Source: Chlamydiia bacterium (GTDB taxonomy: Bacteria > Chlamydiota > Chlamydiia > Chlamydiales > Parachlamydiaceae). From it: DNA of 29,059 bases. The notes beneath the pieces were generated by a model. That model was not told where the DNA came from. It ran no database searches and saw nothing but the letters and a program-made list of their open reading frames with translations. Location: assembly GCA_038257035.1 (NCBI GenBank), contig JBBSJT010000016.1, positions 1-29,059 on the forward strand. The letters are read 5' to 3'. Made by a program: the position numbers and the translations under genes. Positions 1 to 11,085 of this stretch are shown one piece after another (the stretch's first letter is position 1; the number at the start of each line of letters is the position of its first letter).

Positions 1-331
1 CACTAGGAATTCCAATATCTTCATTTATCATAATTGCGTAACCAGTTTCATCTCTCATTGAAAATGAAAATTCAGCATCTTCATTACTTTTTTTCTTTTT
101 TTGTTCCCAAATTTGATCATTAAACCATACTCCAAAAGTGACTTTTTTACTTTTTACCAAAGAGGTCGCCTTTGAATTCTTTTTATTATTTGCACTTGAG
201 TATTTCCAAGTTCCATTAGAATCTAAAATTGCATCTCTTCCTTCGGATGTTTTACATGTGGTTTGAGAGCCAAATAGAGCAGAAGTTAATAGGAGTGACA
301 ATACAACCAATGATGATAATTTACTTTTCAT
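1..331 (-). CDS. Secreted protein, DUF3157-like N-terminus (partial, runs off the window edge; not in ORF track)
   Basis: Hand translation: MKSKLSSLVVLSLLLTSALFGSQTTCKTSEGRDAILDSNGTWKY... A signal peptide is followed by a T-x-x-G-x-x-x-x-L-x-x-x-G-T-W-x-Y motif, and the frame is open to base 2. Confidence 0.7.
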   Translation of the reverse strand, partial: MKSKLSSLVVLSLLLTSALFGSQTTCKTSEGRDAILDSNGTWKYSSANNKKNSKATSLVKSKKVTFGVWFNDQIWEQKKKKSNEDAEFSFSMRDETGYAIMINEDIGIPS

Positions 332-373
332 TTTTTTCCCTTTTTTATAATTTATGAAATGCCAAAAAGAAAA

Positions 374-402
374 ATTGTAGGTGTTTTCAGATTTTTTTGC
401 AA
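374..402 (-). promoter_or_regulatory. sigma66/70-type promoter for the 1..331 gene
   Basis: TTGCAA-N17-TACAAT on the minus strand. Confidence 0.55.
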
Positions 403-657
403 AGCAAATGTTTTTCGTATCACTTTGAGTTTATGTAGTTTATGTTATTAAATAATTGAAAAACCCATAAAAACAGGCTTAAACACCCAGGCAGAGGGGA
501 TATGGGATAAATTTGGGAATTTATTTAAAATTGACATCAATATATTTAAAATAAAGGCTGCGATACAATGGAGAAACATCATGAGAGTAATATCCTAAAT
601 TCAGACGGTATGTTTAGAAATCTACATTAATCAGATTTGAATGATCCATCTTCCATA

Positions 658-957
658 TTAAACCTCTTCCTTGATTTTTAATTTTTCATCTTTGAATCCG
701 GAAACAATCCATTGAGTGACTTTTATGAAAATCCATACAAGAGATTTAACATATATAATAACAGTAATTAAGGCTTCTAGCACATAACCCTTTGCTAAAT
801 CACCCCTTAGAATGTTCGAAATAAAAGTTGGAGCATAGGATAAAATTTCGTAAAAGCTCGACCTTTCAAAAAGCGGTATTAAATCTAAAATTGCTACAAC
901 AGCTATCAATACACAAAATGCTGTTGCCATCCTGTTAAATCCCTTTTCATAATTCAT
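658..957 (-). CDS. Hypothetical membrane protein (2 TM)
   Basis: 99-aa ORF, AGGAG SD upstream, two hydrophobic segments. Confidence 0.7.
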   Translation of the reverse strand: MNYEKGFNRMATAFCVLIAVVAILDLIPLFERSSFYEILSYAPTFISNILRGDLAKGYVLEALITVIIYVKSLVWIFIKVTQWIVSGFKDEKLKIKEEV

Positions 958-1056
958 AAAGCTAAACTCCTTTTTATTTAATTTATACCCTATCCGAAGG
1001 GCTATTTTTTATTAGAATCCCATTGCTAGAAAGAATCCTTTCCGGCAATCGAGAAA

Positions 1057-1176
1057 TTATTTGTCGTTAAAGTGATCCTTTATATCATCGCCCTTGATAT
1101 ACCATTTTTTGCCAAGTTTCTTGCCTTTAAGAATTCCTTCTCTGATCATTTTTGTAACGGAATGACCAAAATATCT
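1057..1176 (-). pseudogene. Remnant of an excisionase-type (HTH_17/MerR-like) DNA-binding protein, C-terminal half
   Basis: Reads ...HSVTKMIREGILKGKKLGKKWYIKGDDIKDHFNDK*, matching the IRxGxLxGxKxGxxWxI wing motif. An in-frame TGA upstream removes the first helices. Confidence 0.6.
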
Positions 1177-1322
1177 TCAAAAATGGAAATCTGTAGAGAA
1201 AGCTTTTATCGAAGTCTCTCACAAAAGGGTAAGGCTAGATTTTTAATGCTTGGCAACGCGGTAAATCTGGTGGTTTAGATTGATTTCCATCCTACACACG
1301 CAAAAGTTGGTTTTTGTCTTGA

Positions 1323-1505
1323 TTATTTTGGGTTACATTTACCTATTATAACAGACAACATATTACATATTATTATGAACACCGTAAAAACATATATTGT
1401 ATAATAAATATTATCCATTTCAATATTTAGAAACCATTTTTCTAGTTGGCTATAATTCTCCATTGCCGTTTTTTCTATTACTTCGATGAACTCACTAACT
1501 TTCAT
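1323..1505 (-). CDS. Small hypothetical membrane protein
   Basis: 60-aa ORF, AAGGA SD, one C-terminal hydrophobic helix. Confidence 0.5.
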   Translation of the reverse strand: MKVSEFIEVIEKTAMENYSQLEKWFLNIEMDNIYYTIYVFTVFIIICNMLSVIIGKCNPK

Positions 1506-1609
1506 TTTAATCCTTTAAAGAGTGTTTTTTTATGACTTTGAAATTATTTACTCGAAAACAACGGTGCCTTGTTATTTATTTCATAAGAACTATCATTTTA
1601 GATATAGCT

Positions 1610-1843
1610 TTAAGTTGTTAGGTTTGATAGAAATGCTTTTACATGCTTAAGTGATAGAACACACCACATACCTAAATAGTAAGAATTTGTTTCTATTTTT
1701 TTAAGGTTTATATTTTCATTCTTATTTTCTAAAAATATAATTTTATTAACAACCCATTTTAATGGAATCCAAAAAGCTAATGATATTAAATACCATAAAA
1801 TGAAATCGACGAAATAGTAGAGATAGAAATATAAATAATGCAT
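1610..1843 (-). CDS. Small hypothetical membrane protein (start moved to ATG 1843)
   Basis: AAGGA SD 6 nt before ATG 1843; aromatic/hydrophobic N-terminal half. Confidence 0.45.
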   Translation of the reverse strand: MHYLYFYLYYFVDFILWYLISLAFWIPLKWVVNKIIFLENKNENINLKKIETNSYYLGMWCVLSLKHVKAFLSNLTT

Positions 1844-1977
1844 GTGACATCCTTGGTTGTTTTGTTTAACTATATGAGCATGAGTAATTTGATAAATTAT
1901 TTTCAACTACAATGATTTATTGAAAAAGTACTTAGCCGGCCAAAATTCAAAGTAATTACTTTAAAAAGTGATCTCTC

Positions 1978-2396
1978 GTAATAGAGGGGAAACTTCTTCC
2001 CTGTGATATTGCCAAAACACAGCTCCTATGTAATATAAACGAAAGTGGGCTTCTATGTAATACTCGCGAAAGTCAGGTCAAAATTGTTCCAGAAAATTTT
2101 TAAACTCTCTTTCGCTACACTGCAACCGCCCCGACTTTACAAGAATTTCGATCATGGATTTAGTGTCCCCCTTTTCGGCTTCCTCAAATAACTTATCGGT
2201 TTTTTTAGTGAACTTTTTTGGTTTTTTTAGGCATCTCTCTCCTCAGCTGCTTATTTATATTTTTGATATGGTAACGGTTCTATTTAAGGTCATACCTACC
2301 CTCATTTTTCCTGTTTTTAATGCTGTTGGAGTCCCTTTATAAGCCTTTACAAATCCCCTTACGCTTTAAAAAGTTCATTGTAATAGAGAAGAAATT
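1978..2396 (+). repeat. Four copies of GTAATA-N5-GAAA-N-T
   Basis: Copies at 1978, 2030, 2057 and 2380. The middle two extend to CTATGTAATA-N4-CGAAAGT with a 27-bp period. Confidence 0.6.
2078..2234 (-). pseudogene. Small frameshifted ORF (51 aa if one A of the early A-run is removed)
   Basis: GAGGAG SD plus ATG at 2234. Frame 0 stops after 9 codons; the +1 frame reads PKKFTKKTDKLFEEAEKGDTKSMIEILVKSGRLQCSEREFKNFLEQF*. Confidence 0.45.
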
Positions 2397-3588: not shown

Positions 3589-3793
3589 CCCAACAGTAAC
3601 CCCCTTTTTCAGCCCTTTCTTTATGTTTAGATTCTTGCGAGCTGTGCTTCCTATAAGCTAACCTTGCTTTTTCTGCATATATAGTATCACCACTTTCAGA
3701 GGCTTCTTTGAATTTTTTATACAGTTCGAATCGTTTCCATGAACTTTTTTCACTAAATTTCTCTACTTCATCCTGACTGTTCCAAGCAACCAT
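3581..3793 (-). CDS. Small helical hypothetical protein, paralog B (start moved to ATG 3793)
   Basis: GGAGG SD before ATG 3793; the 70-aa length matches its paralog. Confidence 0.8.
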   Translation of the reverse strand: MVAWNSQDEVEKFSEKSSWKRFELYKKFKEASESGDTIYAEKARLAYRKHSSQESKHKERAEKGGYCWDV

Positions 3794-3794
3794 A

Positions 3795-4301
3795 TTAAAT
3801 AACCTCCATTTCTTGTAATGCTTCCTCTTTAACAACTTTGATATTATTAATTTGTCCTTGATTGTGATTATATTGGACATTGATAAGTTGCGCGCCTTTA
3901 GTGCGATACTTTGTTAAAGAATCTAAAACCTGATGACCAAATTCAAAGAGGCTTATTGTTGCTGCGTAGCCAACTTGGGAGCTTTCTAAACCTCGAATAT
4001 ATGTTATGGCAAATTGACTTGCTAACGCCGCTTCGATTGCGTCCGCAGGCTGTAAAGATTCAATTAGGTTTACAACAAGCTGAATTTGATCCTCTGAAAC
4101 CATTGGTTGTTGTTTCTTGCCATAATCGCGACTATAGGTGCTTGGCTCCAATGGTGTCTTTAAACCATAAGCTCCTTTAATAGCTCCTTGTATAATCATT
4201 TTGATTACTTTTGGATTTTCTTTTGGCTTAACCTGCATTCCTAACTTTGGAATTGTGGCAACAGGGAAAGCAAGATCTTCGCGAGATACTTTTTTAGCCA
4301 T
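3795..4301 (-). CDS. Hypothetical protein, paralog A
   Basis: GAGG SD before ATG 4301; PADAIEAALASQ motif. Confidence 0.8.
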   Translation of the reverse strand: MAKKVSREDLAFPVATIPKLGMQVKPKENPKVIKMIIQGAIKGAYGLKTPLEPSTYSRDYGKKQQPMVSEDQIQLVVNLIESLQPADAIEAALASQFAITYIRGLESSQVGYAATISLFEFGHQVLDSLTKYRTKGAQLINVQYNHNQGQINNIKVVKEEALQEMEVI

Positions 4302-4312
4302 TTTAAACCTCA

Positions 4313-5365
4313 TTATTTGGAAAAATCATAGAAAACCTTTCCTTTATTGTAATAATCAATTCCCTTTAAAATCCATTCACGGAGATTTACCCCATGGTCT
4401 TTAAATGCATCACCCGGACTTTTCCCTTTAGGGACTGGCCATGGCTTTATATGGTGATATGTGGACTTCCAGAAACTATAAGCTTTTTTACCTGAATCAT
4501 CAAAGTCAAGCGCATAGAGTACTGTTGTGGCTTGCCGTATTATCCGATCCGTTATGATGTCCGGTCTAATAGTTACACCACCTAAAGCTATGCAAGAACA
4601 ACAATCTGCAGCAAGTTGTTGAAGGAGCATTGCATCAAGTTCTGCCTCTACAATTACAAGTGGCTTATAAATGTCTCCATAAAATGAAGGGCATGTAATT
4701 CCCCCTGCAGTAATGTGATATTTGGGATATTCATCACCCTCTTTCCAGTTATGTCGCCGAATTTTTACCCTAACAGGAATATCATCTCTAAAAGAGGGAA
4801 TAACGATCCCCTGAGGTAAACATAATAACCGAGATCCACCCTCTTTCGACAAATCCGGTAGCCCCCACAGCTCCCTTGGCTCAAAAACATCTTTCGAATT
4901 CCATCCCAATTGAAAATCAACTATGCTTTGAATTGTAAGCCCCCTATCTTTATCTGCATTGAGGAGATTAGGGTTTTCAAGCAAATATTGATGGCTTTTT
5001 TGAACAAAATCAGCTGACCTTTGTTCCCATTCCTTTGAAGGCATTGCTAATGACTTGGCAATAAATTTCTCTTTAGGACGTACCAAAAGATTTCTTGATG
5101 AATTTTTGGACTGCTTACCAACTTTGAGACAGGCTGATTTAAAATCCATACCCATGTAATCCCGACAAAATTGAATAGCATCACCTGAACGCAAACATTT
5201 CCGACACCAAAAACGACCATCACTGCCCTCTTCTGGCCAGACGCAAAATCGATCTTTTCCGTCACAAGATGCATCCGGACATGGTGAATGGTATTCCCCT
5301 CCTTTAGAAGCTGCAACTTTTAGTGGGTGAACCCCCAATTCTTTCAACAGATCAAGTACATTCAT
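4313..5365 (-). CDS. DNA primase: P4-alpha-type Zn ribbon plus TOPRIM domain
   Basis: GGEYHSPCP...CDGKDRF...FWCRKC...GDAI zinc ribbon; TOPRIM motifs LVIVEAELDA and ALDFDDSG. Confidence 0.9.
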   Translation of the reverse strand: MNVLDLLKELGVHPLKVAASKGGEYHSPCPDASCDGKDRFCVWPEEGSDGRFWCRKCLRSGDAIQFCRDYMGMDFKSACLKVGKQSKNSSRNLLVRPKEKFIAKSLAMPSKEWEQRSADFVQKSHQYLLENPNLLNADKDRGLTIQSIVDFQLGWNSKDVFEPRELWGLPDLSKEGGSRLLCLPQGIVIPSFRDDIPVRVKIRRHNWKEGDEYPKYHITAGGITCPSFYGDIYKPLVIVEAELDAMLLQQLAADCCSCIALGGVTIRPDIITDRIIRQATTVLYALDFDDSGKKAYSFWKSTYHHIKPWPVPKGKSPGDAFKDHGVNLREWILKGIDYYNKGKVFYDFSK

Positions 5366-5855
5366 AATTTCTCCTTAAAATAATAAACATATCTCGACAG
5401 TCTTGAAGATTAGGTAATTCGTATTTATCCCCATTTCGAATAAACAACTGATCTAACAAATCGTGAAAATCACTTTGCTCTGGTTTTTGGTATTTCGAAA
5501 AATTTGATTTTAAACACCAAAAAGTGAAATCAACCCAAAGAGATCTTAAAGCTACCATTCGCTGAGGCCATCCCATCGCTCTTCCAACTACAGGTTGAGA
5601 GACCTCAAGATGACCTTCTTCCATTGCGATAGTTAACCTTTGTAAAACAATTCGAGTTCCATTTGCTATAACCTTTAATTTTGGTGGGTAACAAACGTGA
5701 CAAGGGTGACGTTCGAGTGAAAATGGTGTCACGTTAAGAGAATCTAGTCTTGTAGCAAGAGTGGCAAATTGATCTAATCGCGAAATAACTTTTAGTTCTG
5801 TCACGTTGTCACTCTCGTCACTTAACATTATTTCACTCATGATTCGCCTTTTCAT
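5352..5855 (-). CDS. Hypothetical replication-module protein; C-terminus resembles the winged-helix tail of phage primase/helicases; start uncertain
   Basis: Overlaps both neighbours. The C-terminal LWVDFTFWC...YELPNLQDCRDMF recalls D5-type helicase tails (from memory), and the 5' part overlaps the iteron cluster. Confidence 0.6.
   Translation of the reverse strand: MKRRIMSEIMLSDESDNVTELKVISRLDQFATLATRLDSLNVTPFSLERHPCHVCYPPKLKVIANGTRIVLQRLTIAMEEGHLEVSQPVVGRAMGWPQRMVALRSLWVDFTFWCLKSNFSKYQKPEQSDFHDLLDQLFIRNGDKYELPNLQDCRDMFIILRRNYECT
5688..5821. other. Putative replication origin (oppositely oriented GTGAC/GTCAC iterons)
   Basis: GTAAC/GTGAC/GTGAC at 5688, 5697 and 5706; GTCAC at 5728, 5800, 5808 and 5817; immediately downstream of the helicase gene. 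Confidence 0.7.
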
Positions 5856-7710
5856 CAGTCAATACTTTAGAAGTAAATCGATATACCCTTGTGCTTTTCT
5901 TAGCTCCAGGCAAACGTTCAGATCGTGTGGCACCTCCTTTCGAGTCAGCCATAAGGAGTTTATTCTTTAAACAGACACGAGCGAAAAGTTCTGGATCAAA
6001 GCCTTTACATATCTCGCGTTTAAAAGATTCGGGGAAAACATAAAATTCTTCTCCTTCTTCACAAGATCTTCGAAAGCCAACTCTCATAAAGGTCTTGCTA
6101 TATTTTTCTTGATCGTCAACCACCCAAGGAGTGAAACGACTTTCCCCATGTTGTTCAAAAAAATGATGAGCATGAGATATTATTTCCCGCTCTTCTTGTG
6201 AACCAATATCACCTCTAGCCCTTAACCAATCATTAAAACAATGCATGGCGGCTTCAATTGCGACCCCTTCATTCCAACCGGTAATTCCAAAATTTGTTGC
6301 AAGCTCACCGGCAATAGCTATTAAAGAAAAGCGATTAAAGGCACGATACACTTGTCCAGAAGCTGAAGCGGGGACAAATTTTTTTGATAATTCAGCCATC
6401 AAATTGTTTGAAAAAGAAATTATTTTCTTCTGATCCTCCAATAAGCAGCGAATAAACTCTATACCGGCTGAACCATAAAAAGATTGGCACAAATACCCTA
6501 TCTGTTCGGCAAAATTCTGTCCATTCTCAGCACCATGTAAATTTTGGAAACAACCGTATTCCTGACCATCGGCAGGTATATCAAGCACTCGAACTTCCTG
6601 ACCCGCCCTTACTTTTTGTTTTGCCTCTAACATGTGATCTGATAATGAAATTTCCCCTGACGATAAAAAAAGCAATCTCCAATTTTTACGTTTACGAGAA
6701 TCGCCGAGTTTATCCGAACGTGTTTTGCCCGTGCCGTTAGCTAACATATAAGCGACTTTCCCAATCTCACAACCGTCCATTTGACCCATTTCATCAAGAA
6801 CGAGCAAACTATCATTGTGTGCGGCCGCGGTTCCCTCTAATCCATTTGCTGTGGCGCGCCATTGTTGTAAATAATCAGACCCACCCCACACTGAAGCTGC
6901 AGCCCTTAAACATGTTGTTTTGCCTGATGAGGAACCTCCACGGAAATGAACTCCTCCGTTTTCTAGTCCTAGAGGAAGTAATAATGGGGGCGCAAAAGCC
7001 GCACTTAGAGCAAATATTAAGCGAGAGTTTCCAACACATTGTGCCGGTATCTGTTTCCATGCAAGTATACTACCAGAAACCGATTGTGTAGGAACTAAGC
7101 CAGTAGCTGTTTGAAGAATAAGCGGTTCATCACCACAATTTCCAATGGTTTCATTTTGAAATACAAATGCTTTTAGCTCTTTATTCCAACCTGTTTGATC
7201 TACACATCTAACAGTTTTGTTTGGCCTTGATGTTTGAATATAAATCGTAAGAAGTTGACGAGCCGATTTACCTGGATCAATTAGTAACCCCTTGGACAAT
7301 AACTCCTGTCTGTAAACAGCTCCATCAGTGGCAAGAAGCTGCATCGGCATCGCCCATGAATGCTCTAGGTTATCAAGATCAAAAAAACGAAGTAACCTTC
7401 CATGATTTTCCCCCACTTGATCACGAGTTCTTGCCACCACTTCCAATTTGGAACAAATCCGAATAACTGTCGGGGAATTTTCAGAATCTGTATCTTTTAA
7501 ATAAGTTAACCAACCTTCTTTATCAAAAATAAAACCGTCAGGCAAATTTGTATCTCCATACAATCTGTCTAAATCTTCTGCTCTAGCTACAGATAAAGAT
7601 TCATTGTCTAATAGTTTTTCTTGTTCTAATAGTGAAATGATGCGATTAGGCTTTTCAAATTGAGGAATTTCTAGTTGATGTTCACTAAGTGATATGTTAT
7701 TATCTTCCAT
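5833..7710 (-). CDS. DUF927-domain replicative helicase/ATPase (Cch-like)
   Basis: Walker A GGSSSGKTT, WRATANGLEG, Walker B LLVLDEMG, YMLANGTGKTR, LFLSSGE. Confidence 0.9.
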   Translation of the reverse strand: MEDNNISLSEHQLEIPQFEKPNRIISLLEQEKLLDNESLSVARAEDLDRLYGDTNLPDGFIFDKEGWLTYLKDTDSENSPTVIRICSKLEVVARTRDQVGENHGRLLRFFDLDNLEHSWAMPMQLLATDGAVYRQELLSKGLLIDPGKSARQLLTIYIQTSRPNKTVRCVDQTGWNKELKAFVFQNETIGNCGDEPLILQTATGLVPTQSVSGSILAWKQIPAQCVGNSRLIFALSAAFAPPLLLPLGLENGGVHFRGGSSSGKTTCLRAAASVWGGSDYLQQWRATANGLEGTAAAHNDSLLVLDEMGQMDGCEIGKVAYMLANGTGKTRSDKLGDSRKRKNWRLLFLSSGEISLSDHMLEAKQKVRAGQEVRVLDIPADGQEYGCFQNLHGAENGQNFAEQIGYLCQSFYGSAGIEFIRCLLEDQKKIISFSNNLMAELSKKFVPASASGQVYRAFNRFSLIAIAGELATNFGITGWNEGVAIEAAMHCFNDWLRARGDIGSQEEREIISHAHHFFEQHGESRFTPWVVDDQEKYSKTFMRVGFRRSCEEGEEFYVFPESFKREICKGFDPELFARVCLKNKLLMADSKGGATRSERLPGAKKSTRVYRFTSKVLTDEKANHE

Positions 7711-7879: not shown

Positions 7880-8194
7880 TCACGAATGAGCTGCTCCCTT
7901 GTTACAGGACATCGTTTCATATTTATCTCCTTGTTTATAACGATTCTCAACTTGTTTGATTAAAGTGAAAAATATTTTAGGTTCAACTAATACTCGCCGG
8001 TTCACACGGATAAAAGCTTCCTTAATACCCATTTCTTCTGCCCTGTAAATATACGCGCGCAGCGCAGATTCACTTGGCCAAGGATGCTCTGCACAAAATT
8101 GTCTGATTGTTAAGAGCTGCCCTTTCTTTGGTTCCAACCAATCAGTCACCTTATCGATACCATTTTGTTTACCAACTACGGTGGCATTTATCAT
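7880..8194 (-). CDS. Excisionase/AlpA-like DNA-binding protein
   Basis: LLTIRQFCAEHPWPSESALRAYIY...FIRVNRRVLVE winged-HTH pattern; AAGGAGG SD; position between integrase and replication genes. Confidence 0.75.
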   Translation of the reverse strand: MINATVVGKQNGIDKVTDWLEPKKGQLLTIRQFCAEHPWPSESALRAYIYRAEEMGIKEAFIRVNRRVLVEPKIFFTLIKQVENRYKQGDKYETMSCNKGAAHS

Positions 8195-8332: not shown

Positions 8333-9475
8333 CTATATAAACATGTGAATAATAGATAGTTTGTCGCCGAATTCAGAATTTATTTTACGTGCGGATAAAA
8401 TGGATTCAAAAACTCCGTTTATTAACCAGCGTCTATATAGAGAGTGAACGGCTCTAAATGGGGGGTATGAATGCGGTAACTTACGGATTGGGGTTTCAGT
8501 CCTTAAATGATATAAGATACCGTTTAAAACATGCCTTGGATCATGTTGTGAAGGCGCTCCTCTCCTTTTTTTTATTTCAGGTACTTGCAGACATATATTT
8601 TCCCATTCTTCAATTGAAACTTCACTATATTTGCTCTCGCAGTAATTTGGTTTTGTCTTTTTAAATTTACCGATCGGTCTTAAAGATAATGAGCATACAG
8701 TTTTTTTTATTTTTGCCTGTTTCCCAGCCTTTTTAAAAAATCTTGAAACATCGCTAGGTAACAACTGGCCGTAATCTTGATTTGTAAATACGAATAAGGA
8801 ATCGTTTTTTATTAAATTACATAATGGCTGCCATATATATTCTGGAAGTAAATGTGAGACCATATGACTTCCGTGAGAGGTTGTACGGAATAAATGAATA
8901 CACGTTGTTATCCCATCTTCCGGATCTACATCATTCATTTTCATCCGCAACACTTCTTCTAGAGTAATATAATCGTCTCCCGGCTGTAATTCTCTATTTA
9001 GAAACCATAAAATTTCAGCAATCACAGCAGCTTGAAAATTTATTTTTTTAAGGCGGCTTATGAATTTATCATATTCGGATTTTTTTAAAAAACAATACTT
9101 CCGATCAGATCTTCTACTTGATTTTTCTATATTAGTTTTTTTTAAAACTTTTCTTTGAAGTCCCGTCACCCAAGAAATAGGTATATCATTTGCTGTGCAA
9201 AGTTCCTTAACTTCATCGCCTGAAAGCATCCATGGCAAAATCGTTTCTTTAGTGTTTTTATTAATAAATTTAAAGGCCTCTTCACATGATCTTCGTGGCG
9301 GTGAATCTGGTAATTTTTCTCCATCTACAGGAATCAACTGAAATTGATGTAAATATCCATCCTCTCCCAAAGCATTTCTTGGAACATAAAACATGGGGAC
9401 GTTGACCCACCTTCCACGATAATAAGCGAATTGCACTAGATGTAGGTAATCATCCTTCTTCTTTTTTATGGTCAT
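8333..9475 (-). CDS. Fusion protein: degenerate tyrosine-recombinase core plus IS5-family DUF4096-type HTH
   Basis: Middle: FLKKSEYDKF...LEEVLRMKMNDVD...FVF...FKKAGKQAKIKKTVCSLSLRP. C-terminus: VSIEEWENI...RRGAPSQHDPRHVLNGILYHLRT...LPHSYPP...YRRW. AAGGAGG SD. Confidence 0.75.
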   Translation of the reverse strand: MTIKKKKDDYLHLVQFAYYRGRWVNVPMFYVPRNALGEDGYLHQFQLIPVDGEKLPDSPPRRSCEEAFKFINKNTKETILPWMLSGDEVKELCTANDIPISWVTGLQRKVLKKTNIEKSSRRSDRKYCFLKKSEYDKFISRLKKINFQAAVIAEILWFLNRELQPGDDYITLEEVLRMKMNDVDPEDGITTCIHLFRTTSHGSHMVSHLLPEYIWQPLCNLIKNDSLFVFTNQDYGQLLPSDVSRFFKKAGKQAKIKKTVCSLSLRPIGKFKKTKPNYCESKYSEVSIEEWENICLQVPEIKKRRGAPSQHDPRHVLNGILYHLRTETPIRKLPHSYPPFRAVHSLYRRWLINGVFESILSARKINSEFGDKLSIIHMFI

Positions 9476-9490
9476 ATATTTTACCTCCTT

Positions 9491-10555
9491 CTATTTTCTA
9501 CGATTTTGGGATCTTTCTAAAACATCTTTCAAATGACTTTGACTGTAGTGTGCATAACGCCGAGTCATTGCAGGTGATCGATGCCCTAGAATTGCCATTA
9601 ATTCACCTTGAGTTGCTCCTGACATTGCCATATTTGAAGCCGCCGTGTGTCGTAAATCATGAAAGCGGAAGTTCTCAATTCCTGCTTTCTTGACTGCTCT
9701 CTCAAAGGAATCACGAACACAAACTTTTTTCTGCTCCTGTGTATTGTACAAAGATTTAAAGACTAGATCTTCTTTGGCGGCTTTTGGCTTTATGCAATTT
9801 TGAAAAATCAACTTGACCTCATCGGTCATAGGAAGTACACGTCTATCACCATTTTTGGTGCGCTCTAAAATAATTTTAGATTCTTCATAACAAACATCAC
9901 ACACACGAAGTCCTGTGATTTCCCCTAGGCGCATTCCAGTAAATATTGCAAGAGATACAATAGGAAATAGATGAGGATTACGCGATTCCTTACAAGTTTT
10001 TAAAAGTCGCTCTTTTTCTTCAGAACTTAAAAAGCGTTCGCGTCCTTCACCTTCTGACGGTTTAGTTACATTTCGGATAGGGCTATCTTCTAACCATCCC
10101 CATTCCTTTACTGTTACTGCTAAAGCCTTACCTAAAGCACTTAAATAACGATTAACAGTGCTTGGACTGCGTAATCTACCCCGAACAGTTGTTTCACTTA
10201 GCAGATGATCGCGACCGCTTGCAATGACTGCTGTTGTGAGATCCGCAAGCAGGAGATGACCGCACCTTTGCTTCCACCAATTCAAAAGACTTGTTTGTTT
10301 TTCTTGACGGCCGGGATACTTAATAAGCCATTGTTCAACAAAACGATCGATCATTTCATTAACAGTATGCCGCTTTGCCTCGACTGTTTTAAAATGCCGA
10401 CCATCACGAATCCCACTTTCAACATCTTGGATCCATTTTTTTGCTAAAGTGCGGGTACGAAAAGAAGCTCGTTGTGGTAAATGTCCCCTTAACCTCACTT
10501 CGGCATGGTATGAACTGCTACCATCTTTGCGAACGCATTCACGAATCGTTCCCAT
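9491..10555 (-). CDS. Site-specific tyrosine integrase
   Basis: TGMRLGEI, FRFHDLRH and LGHRSPAMTRRY give a full catalytic set; N-terminal arm-binding beta domain; AGGAGG SD. Confidence 0.95.
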   Translation of the reverse strand: MGTIRECVRKDGSSSYHAEVRLRGHLPQRASFRTRTLAKKWIQDVESGIRDGRHFKTVEAKRHTVNEMIDRFVEQWLIKYPGRQEKQTSLLNWWKQRCGHLLLADLTTAVIASGRDHLLSETTVRGRLRSPSTVNRYLSALGKALAVTVKEWGWLEDSPIRNVTKPSEGEGRERFLSSEEKERLLKTCKESRNPHLFPIVSLAIFTGMRLGEITGLRVCDVCYEESKIILERTKNGDRRVLPMTDEVKLIFQNCIKPKAAKEDLVFKSLYNTQEQKKVCVRDSFERAVKKAGIENFRFHDLRHTAASNMAMSGATQGELMAILGHRSPAMTRRYAHYSQSHLKDVLERSQNRRK

Positions 10556-10685
10556 GACGACCTCCTATAAAACTGAATAATGTAAAAAAGATTAGAATAA
10601 AGGACAACAAGAGATTAACAATCCCTAGCTTTATTTGCTTTTGATACTCATGTGAGTAAACTTTTGGATGAATTTTTCTTTTGAT

Positions 10686-10938
10686 TACGCACTTTTTACG
10701 CATTTTAAGATAAAATTTGACACATAAGGACAGTAATGAATAGAAACTGGCAAAGACTGCCACGCTTGTCACGTTGAAAAAAAAACAGATGTGTGACATA
10801 AAATCCACTGTAATGCCACTTTTGTCACGCGCGTCACGCGAAGAAAAGAAAGACAATGGCAAACATAAAGAGAAAATCTTTAAAGAAAAAGTTTGATTTG
10901 TGCTGGTTTGTTTTGGCGGAGTGCGTAAAAATTGCGTA
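10686..10938. repeat. Attachment-arm region: inverted pair of tandem TGCGTA sites flanking a 9-bp-period GYCAC repeat cluster
   Basis: TACGCACTTTTTACGCA (10686-10702) is the reverse complement of TGCGTAAAAATTGCGTA (10922-10938) at 16/17; YGYCAC at 10758, 10767, 10814, 10823 and 10832. Confidence 0.7.
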
Positions 10939-11002: not shown

Positions 11003-11085
11003 TGCTCGGAGCCGGACTCGAACCGGCACAGGATTGCTCCCGAGGGATTTTAAGTCCCTTGTGTCTACCATTTCACCACCCGAGC
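11003..11085 (-). tRNA. tRNA-Leu (anticodon TAA), CCA not encoded
   Basis: GCTCGGG/CCGAGC acceptor stem, AGGGA-CTTAAAA-TCCCT anticodon arm, long variable arm, GGTTCGAGTCC T-loop. Confidence 0.97.

Follow-up and report, generated by a model that had tools for sequence, protein, structure and literature searches.

What is the function of a gene that joins part of a tyrosine recombinase to the DNA-binding module of a transposase, and that follows directly behind an intact integrase gene? Such a gene lies at positions 8333 to 9475 of the DNA studied here, a stretch of 29,059 nucleotides (nt) from a Chlamydiia bacterium of the family Parachlamydiaceae (GenBank assembly GCA_038257035.1, contig JBBSJT010000016.1, positions 1 to 29,059), which as a whole we call the window. 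A first-pass annotation, made from the sequence alone, had described the product as a catalytically dead recombinase core fused in frame to the helix-turn-helix (HTH) of an IS5 transposase. We find that this fusion belongs to a conserved family tied to integrases of chlamydial islands, and we give about an even chance to the reading that its product is a partner of the island's tyrosine integrase that binds DNA but has no catalytic role. The parts of the gene, hereafter the partner gene, are as follows (aa, amino acids; pLDDT, predicted local distance difference test score; ORF, open reading frame).

8333..9475, reverse strand: chimeric pseudo-recombinase/HTH gene (partner gene), 380 aa; from the ORF list, 11 full-length homologues and a 52-member alignment
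9161..9475, reverse strand: N-terminal domain, residues 1-105; conserved in alignments, model pLDDT about 72
8657..9112, reverse strand: truncated tyrosine-recombinase catalytic-domain fold, residues 122-273; Pfam, HMMER and structure matches
8399..8611, reverse strand: DUF4096 (IS5 OrfA) HTH, residues 289-359; Pfam E 2.6e-16 and NCBIfam transpos_IS5_3
8336..8383, reverse strand: C-terminal extension of 16 residues, INSEFGDKLSIIHMFI, absent from homologues in their alignment

The recombinase-like core and its attached domains

The Phage_integrase profile of Pfam (PF00589) matches residues 173-266 of the window protein over profile positions 39-133 of 172 (E 8.3e-5), with a score of 22.9 bits that lies under the gathering threshold of 27.1 bits. 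One relative, the partner protein of locus L036, passes that cut-off (34.8 bits), and another, P0010, carries a precomputed PF00589 match; in NCBIfam the window protein weakly matches XerA. An AlphaFold model built from an alignment of 12 sequences (pLDDT 71) was compared with the PDB. The top Foldseek ranks were held by XerA, a staphylococcal integrase, XerH, Tn1549 Int, IntI, Cre and lambda Int, with the recombinase-like repressors MrpR, YopR and SroF at lower ranks. The best re-aligned match was 3nkh_A, with a Z score of 13.8 and a root-mean-square deviation (rmsd) of 2.7 Å over 134 residues (model residues 125-273). The recombinase core that the first-pass annotation had placed at about 9090-8675 is thus matched by fold. 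Scores of Z≥8 were reached by 83 of the 323 chains compared, and among the matches listed, the best 50, all are tyrosine recombinases, type IB topoisomerases or recombinase-like repressors. A fold search of BFVD returned mostly proteins named integrase, together with some unnamed or uncharacterized entries. The model covers lambda Int from residue 173 to about 322 and stops before His333 and Tyr342. Judged by the model, therefore, the tyrosine-recombinase fold is real yet incomplete, comprising about the first three quarters of the catalytic domain.

What is left of the active site was traced through HMMER alignments and across 52 aligned relatives with the same fusion (described below). Box I of the window protein reads D-Y-I-T-L-E-E-V-L, and the register of EEVLRM against GELCNL in the alignment to XerA would put T171 at the position of the first catalytic arginine (Arg-I). 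None of the 52 fused forms has Arg at positions 169-172. The motif SLSLRP aligns to (P)HVLRH of XerA and 3nkh, with L263 at the second-box histidine (His-II) and R266 at the second arginine (Arg-II). Both substitutions named in the first-pass annotation, the replaced box-I Arg and the change of HxLR to LSLR, are thus recovered. R266 is present in 52/52 fused forms. Position 263 is Leu in 42 of the 52, and His is not among its five commonest residues. The column aligned to the catalytic Lys holds K in 5/52. We had considered R197 as a substitute for this Lys and withdrew it, as the XerA alignment places R197 three residues ahead of the Lys position. Tyr occurs in more than 60% of fused forms at one column only, Y18, and the alignment contains no conserved Tyr of the catalytic type. 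The whole segment that would carry the third-box histidine (His-III) and the nucleophilic Tyr is missing, with a linker and the HTH coming after SLSLRP; the domain does end before the His/Tyr box, as had been proposed.

The in-frame HTH, previously placed at about 8630-8390, is matched by DUF4096 with 60.1 bits against a cut-off of 34.3, over profile positions 4-75 of 76, and by transpos_IS5_3 at positions 3-80 of 258 only. It is 37% identical to OrfA of an IS5 element that is present in multiple copies in another chlamydial genome. Residues 289-359 span the DUF4096 domain from one end to the other, a feature in common with IS5-family OrfA. The partner differs from IS5-family transposases in that a DDE_Tnp_1 domain, a second ORF and terminal inverted repeats are all missing, and it reads TPIRK where chlamydial IS5 OrfA has a conserved Trp in a GCQWR motif. 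No DDE domain was found in the window protein with Pfam, PHROGs or NCBIfam, and no inverted repeats bracket the HTH part at the locus, in agreement with the first-pass annotation. We conclude that the protein cannot be a self-sufficient recombinase or transposase. The profile search also met two proteins, P0060 (516 aa) and P0070 (433 aa), whose only domains are four or five DUF4096 HTH repeats in tandem.

The ends of the protein carry two further features. The conserved N-terminal domain of about 105 residues had been overlooked; it is modelled as a beta-hairpin with the motif AYYRGRWVxVP, followed by helices with LKELCxxNDIPxxW. Modelled alone (pLDDT 72), it had no match in the PDB (best Z 2.3 among 48,161 chains), and the ESM Atlas gave no usable match for it. 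At the other end, the motif GAATTCGGCGACAAAC at 8359-8374 is read through as part of the C-terminal extension of the window protein. In relatives a single-copy motif TTCRRCGACAA (TTCGACCCCA in a second group) lies just after the partner stop codon, or within about 45 nt of it. It was located at window 8359-8374, L003 1976-1991, L035 2750-2765, L008 4353-4368 and L033 8126-8141.

The fused family and its relatives without the HTH

A chimera of this kind could be a non-functional scar, left where an IS5 element had landed in a recombinase gene, with the reading frame kept open by chance. The 16-residue tail absent from relatives would suit such an accident, as would the relative at locus L002, which ends within the HTH and no longer has an integrase. 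The family as a whole contradicts it. A word-indexed search gave 11 relatives that are 328-372 aa long and have 42-58% identity to the window protein over 84-96% of the query, and DUF4096 is present in 10 of the 11. An exhaustive profile search extended this to 68 cluster representatives at E≤1e-30. Across the 159 stored proteins that match the family profile, 44 combine N-terminal domain, core and HTH, 13 have core and HTH, 8 have N-terminal domain and core, 19 have the core only, 12 the N-terminal domain only and 59 the HTH only; 4 are unclassified. At least 52 fused relatives, 25-58% identical to the window protein, could be aligned. Residues N160, F230, A250, R266 and W350 are invariant across these 52. 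The majority fraction is nearly equal in the core (0.51) and the HTH (0.52), with 0.39 in the N-terminal domain and 0.29 and 0.21 in the two linkers. Among the 15 closest of 45 pairs, non-synonymous differences per site (pN, 0.22-0.42) are below synonymous ones (pS, 0.60-0.84), even with synonymous sites close to saturation; in the pair with the least saturation the ratio of non-synonymous to synonymous rates (dN/dS) is 0.215.

These coding-sequence comparisons indicate that the family is under purifying selection. Because diverged relatives have the architecture in common, core and HTH are conserved to the same degree and pN is below pS, we conclude that the core-HTH fusion is old and selected, and is not an insertion-sequence scar. 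The same junction recurs in 52 diverged relatives, both halves are conserved, and neither a DDE remnant nor insertion-sequence ends remain. The tree does not speak against a single origin either. In a phylogeny of the core, 51 of 52 fused forms fall in one clade (ultrafast bootstrap 89, Shimodaira-Hasegawa-like approximate likelihood ratio test (SH-aLRT) 82; SH-aLRT 97 in a quick tree), and a topology with all 52 constrained to one clade is not rejected (approximately unbiased test, p-AU 0.64). The scar is thus scarcely credible. The first-pass annotation had named chance fusion with neutral evolution, and failure to match the recombinase fold, as outcomes that would overturn it; fused relatives beside integrases, the low dN/dS and the match to 3nkh_A are what was found instead.

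A sample of 400 genomes of the phylum contained full-length matches in 7, over five families, and core-only matches in six more, plus one core and HTH match interrupted by a stop codon; most other matches in this sample are IS5 HTHs. Pattern scans across GTDB and metagenomes gave 8 loci in all, and the two from the genome scan are metagenome-assembled genomes of Chlamydiae. No relatives were found in a scan of viral contigs. The architecture is undescribed in the literature searched, outside which most subscription journals fell. One further protein, P0091 (334 aa), combines the family's N-terminal domain with stretches like the DUF3987-like and primase proteins of locus L005; a deletion or a chimeric assembly is its probable origin.

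We also aligned 17 relatives without the HTH, comprising 13 representative proteins and 4 genome loci, of which one belongs to the genome of the window itself. Most keep the N-terminal hairpin motif and LKEICxxNxIPxxW, with the protein of locus L040 lacking the hairpin. They carry an inserted domain that aligns with the core-binding domain of the chlamydial plasmid proteins pGP7 and pGP8, and in the L040 protein a PHROGs integrase profile matches the inserted region. In eight of the 17 the last residues are those of the Arg-II motif (for example ...ITPSQLR); in most of the others the end lies within 1-12 residues of it.

The core had been said to recall pGP7/pGP8; these are its nearest lineage by sequence, and the link is seen by way of an HTH-less relative. 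When P0077 was searched with tblastn against plasmids, 101 of 101 records were pGP7/pGP8 genes of Chlamydia/Chlamydophila (best E 2e-9), with about 26% identity over residues 88-315. The direct link is weak: tblastn of the window protein against plasmids gave IS5 HTH matches only, and hhalign of the window profile against pGP8-D gave E 0.0016 with a probability of 16%. The motif L-x-K-I-N-x-x-x-x-L-I-A and a core-binding-like domain are common to pGP7/pGP8 and the HTH-less relatives. The tree sets pGP7/8 beside the HTH-less L040 protein, a join flagged as a possible long-branch artefact. Whereas pGP8-D has the full R...HxLR...H...Y set and pGP7-D keeps its Tyr, the window protein has neither; pGP8-D and pGP7-D run past HVLR to ...YAYD and ...SAYD, whereas the window protein switches after SLSLRP; and pGP7/8, unlike the partner, have no DUF4096 domain. 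Genes for pgp7/8 are reported to occur in chlamydial plasmids and chromosomes and nowhere else (Kostlbacher et al. 2021, PMC7846284).

A recombinase of the pGP7/8 lineage may have lost Arg-I, the beta-hairpin Lys, His-II and the whole C-terminal segment with His-III and Tyr. One sub-lineage would in addition have lost the core-binding domain and gained the IS5 transposase HTH at the point of truncation. The exchange of core-binding domain for IS5 HTH probably happened once.

Coupling to the integrase and the layout of the islands

The features that surround the partner gene in the window are the following (tRNA, transfer RNA; int, the integrase gene).

9491..10555, reverse strand: intact tyrosine integrase, 354 aa; Pfam E 7.5e-32 and alignment of integrases
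9484..9490, reverse strand: Shine-Dalgarno sequence AAGGAGG, 8 nt before the partner ATG, within the 15-nt gap between int and partner gene
10686..10702, reverse strand: Box B, TGCGTAAAAAGTGCGTA, two TGCGTA half-sites with 11 bp spacing, 131-147 nt upstream of the int ATG
10922..10938, forward strand: Box A, the Box B 17-mer inverted, 65 nt from the tRNA 3' end
11003..11085, reverse strand: tRNA-Leu(taa), 3' end toward the integrase
7880..8194, reverse strand: conserved 104-aa ORF, after the partner gene in at least 8 islands; alignment of homologues
5833..7710, reverse strand: DUF927 primase/helicase-type replication protein; Pfam E 8.8e-81 and phrog_1139 DNA primase
4313..5365, reverse strand: DnaG-like primase with CHC2 zinc finger and Toprim, both weak matches

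Flanked by the tRNA-Leu gene, by replication genes and, to the right of the tRNA, by the housekeeping genes GAPDH, L17 and rpoA, the partner gene forms part of an island beside a tRNA. The integrase has a complete catalytic set (R209, K234, H299, R302, H325, Y334), and the partner ORF begins 15 nt past its stop codon. As its 3' end faces the integrase, tRNA-Leu(taa) is the likely attachment site. A second copy of the tRNA 3' end was not found in the window (up to 3 mismatches) or in the genome (up to 2 mismatches), and no far boundary of the island was found before the contig ends at position 1. Toward that end (window 1-2000) the G+C content falls to 0.29-0.30, and the ORFs match no family.

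Coupling between the two genes was assessed at 17 distinct loci: the window, L001, L002 (on the same contig as L004 and L013), L003, L005-L008 and L032-L040. In 16 of the 17 the gene immediately before the partner gene, in the same orientation, is a Phage_integrase gene. The distance from integrase stop to partner start is -11 to +15 nt in the 14 loci measured, with overlap in 9 of them. The adjacency also holds for the HTH-less relatives at L037-L040. The neighbouring integrases belong to one family, 43-66% identical to that of the window, with their catalytic residues intact. At L039 (8459-10874) a DDE_Tnp_1 insertion sequence has reduced the integrase to a 154-aa C-terminal piece, and the truncated-recombinase gene behind it is intact. 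The window genome has a second island, on contig C51 (L040 3311-5868) at tRNA-Thr/tRNA-Tyr, where an integrase (3771-4832) overlaps an HTH-less truncated recombinase (4825-5868) that is followed by a DUF5906/VapE-type protein. A single genome thus holds the fused and the HTH-less forms, on two islands.

Of 13 loci scanned, 8 have a tRNA gene (Tyr, Met or Asn) next to int, as does the window (tRNA-Leu), and the elements look like tRNA-integrating islands. At L001 (2374-2429) int is preceded by a partial tRNA-Leu of about 56 nt, which runs from the anticodon loop to the 3' end and comprises just the 3' half; this suggests that the core of the attachment (att) site spans the 3' half of tRNA-Leu. 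The L001 island may lie within a tandem array. Downstream, the replication modules vary: DUF927 with a DnaG-like protein, RepB_primase-DUF3987 with a helicase, NrS-1-like, AAA_25 or DUF5906. Because the replication module is swapped and the int-partner pair persists, we regard the partner as tied to the integrase and not to any one replicon.

This bears on the proposal that the partner serves an extrachromosomal phase of the island, as an origin-binding protein, a helper of multimer resolution or a partition adaptor, in a role inherited from the plasmid maintenance of pGP7/8. The core is probably related to pGP7/8, a family reported only from chlamydial plasmids and chromosomes, and a primase/helicase replication module is present in every island. 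In the window and L001, CGTGACA(n3)GTGGCA-type repeats are found at two places upstream of int, with a further copy near the beginning of the ORF that follows DUF927, close to replication genes (window 10748-10850 and 5694-5708; L001 2590-2670 and 7579-7594); they could be iterons or coincidental coding sequence. The exchange of replication modules behind a constant int-partner pair argues for a link to the integrase, and we consider a maintenance role very unlikely.

Most islands have two inverted boxes between the tRNA end and the start of int, each made of two half-sites of 6-7 nt that are 11 bp apart. The TGCGTAA box of the window group is an exact 17-mer in 4 of 4 islands, against a chance expectation in the window of 0.06; its positions elsewhere are L001 2738-2754, L035 5041-5057 and L036 3525-3541. 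Other groups have ATGGGAC (L005, L008 and L032-L034) or CCCCAC (L040), and L037 and L038 have tandem half-sites without a clear inverted partner. The boxes track the integrase groups and also occur in L040, whose partner has no HTH. They are thus probably arm-type sites of the integrase and not sites of the partner. A separate inverted repeat, GGGATT-GTTA-ATCCC, lies about 50-70 nt upstream of the int ATG (window about 10580-10595, GGGATTGTTAATCTC) and is kept at the aligned position in L001, L005 and L032-L036, across island groups. Predicted promoters were no more frequent than in shuffled sequence (8 versus 11.2).

The first-pass annotation had placed the gene where satellites carry their repressor, and had suggested a possible master regulator or directionality factor. 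In the first of these roles the partner would be the transcriptional master regulator or repressor of the island, like MrpR/YopR or SroF, silencing the downstream 104-aa ORF, DUF927 and primase genes in the integrated state. The recombinase-like repressors are indeed structural neighbours of the partner (MrpR 8a0a, YopR 8bj6 and SroF 9rgl, Z 9.9-10.5; for 8a0a, Z 9.9 and rmsd 3.9 Å over 131 residues, for 9rgl, Z 10.5). Immunity repressors diverge fast, and the partner diverges far faster than its integrase. A spacer of 113-395 nt, measured in 10 loci (138 nt in the window), follows the gene and holds the conserved single-copy motif (which in the window falls within the C-terminal extension), so that this region could contain a promoter of its own. 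That the two boxes ahead of int are better explained as arm sites of the integrase also favours this alternative. Against it, the gene is co-directional with int and coupled to it by near-abutting or overlapping stop and start codons in the 16 loci, and is neither divergent nor separate; from this arrangement it looks like an operon partner of the integrase and not a separately controlled repressor, and the placement originally proposed found no support in that form. True recombinases match the model better than the repressors do (Z 13.8 versus about 10), and no repeated or shared operator-like sites were found in the spacer after the partner gene. The published account of MrpR describes a repressor of SPbeta that has the recombinase fold but lacks recombination activity and retains only 3 of its 7 catalytic residues; by the same account MrpR retains complete core-binding and catalytic domains with Lys and Tyr, whereas the partner family is truncated at Arg-II or a few residues past it, and the fused form has no core-binding domain and no conserved Lys or Tyr. 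We regard a repressor role as the main rival to an integrase partner, though a rather unlikely one. The 104-aa ORF itself was considered as an excisionase or AlpA-type HTH, and this was dropped, as neither Pfam nor a PDB profile search backs such a family.

A proposed non-catalytic partner of the integrase and its significance

We favour an integrase partner because both DNA-binding-capable parts of the protein are under selection and the gene is tied to the integrase and not to the replication module. The partner would be made from the integrase transcript, as suggested by the 15-nt gap with its own Shine-Dalgarno sequence in the window and by the overlapping stop and start codons in relatives. 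It is predicted to bind DNA through the remaining recombinase surface, which includes the invariant R266, and through the HTH. Within the complex of integrase and att DNA it may then serve integration or excision as a subunit whose role is accessory, architectural, targeting or directional.

Several observations weigh against this proposal. The partner diverges faster than the integrase (L035 and L036, 79% identity for the integrases and 39% for the partners; L008 and L034, 80% and 41%), which suits a specificity or immunity regulator as well, and the identity matrices of the two proteins are only moderately congruent (Mantel r 0.43, with 13 of 2000 permutations as high). At L002, the sole locus without an integrase, the copy stops inside the HTH (328 aa) in a rearranged context; small unrelated ORFs and fragments lie beside it (L002 1-2958), and the copy looks like it is decaying. 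The boxes, if they belong to the integrase, would not supply the partner with a DNA target. The presence of MrpR, YopR and SroF among the structural neighbours points toward repression, and no fusion of integrase and partner was found among the longer proteins (666-2000 aa), which is weak evidence.

More specific forms of partnership can be drawn from the way the family is truncated. The partner could be a structural protomer of a heteromeric synapse, occupying recombinase positions on att DNA and docking the Tyr-bearing segment of the integrase, which alone would cleave. XerC/XerD, and Flp with its shared active sites, are analogues. The ends of the HTH-less relatives at or near Arg-II, which look as if loss of the tail were selected, the invariance of Arg-II, the tight coupling to int and the core-binding-like domain kept by the HTH-less forms all fit. 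A shared active site would nevertheless be very incomplete, as Arg-I, Lys and His-II are missing, and rapid divergence of the partner poorly fits a tight symmetric interface. This arrangement seems to us very unlikely. A little less doubtful, though still improbable, is that the partner is a dedicated pseudo-recombinase subunit, which would sit in the synapse, accept the Tyr-bearing C-terminal segment of the integrase in the cleft left by its own missing tail, and read DNA with the core-binding domain or the IS5 HTH, forming an obligate hetero-oligomer of live and dead recombinases. Such a subunit would explain why eight of the 17 HTH-less relatives end exactly at Arg-II and most others near it.

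Known systems offer partial parallels. XerC/XerD and Tn554 TnpA/TnpB are pairs of co-encoded recombinase-fold proteins that act on one site, both catalytically competent, whereas the partner lacks five of six catalytic residues, the nucleophile included. To our knowledge, few recombinase-fold proteins without catalysis have been described, for example the repressors of SPbeta and phi3T. With these, MrpR (YopR) and SroF, the partner has in common the recombinase fold, the loss of most catalytic residues and a place among DNA-binding proteins of mobile elements (binding being predicted for the partner). It differs in adding an N-terminal domain and an IS5 HTH and in being coupled to an active tyrosine integrase, and the match is by fold only, with no detectable sequence relationship. 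Accessory factors of integrases are normally small, unrelated proteins. Like recombination directionality factors, Orf2 and Orf3 of the pleolipovirus SNJ2 are encoded together with a tyrosine integrase; they are reported to lie in one operon with the integrase, in an element that inserts at tRNA genes, and to be required for recombination in one of its two directions, and so provide a precedent for accessory proteins of integration that are co-transcribed with the integrase. Orf2 and Orf3 are small and unrelated to recombinases, whereas the partner is a recombinase derivative of 350-390 aa.

The result is a diversified family, with at least 52 fused and at least 17 HTH-less members in several chlamydial families, in which a recombinase truncated near Arg-II, fitted with one or another DNA-binding module, is firmly tied to a live integrase. 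If the partner is only a repressor, the principle known from MrpR would reach a further phylum and a different architecture. If it is a pseudo-recombinase subunit, it would represent a new way to build site choice or directionality into a tyrosine-recombinase system. If integration depends on it as a subunit, or if it switches directionality, this would account for the control of integration in tRNA-targeting islands of obligate intracellular bacteria and provide a natural case of domain-swapped target recognition in tyrosine recombination, and the origin and role of the chlamydia-specific pGP7/8 lineage would become testable.

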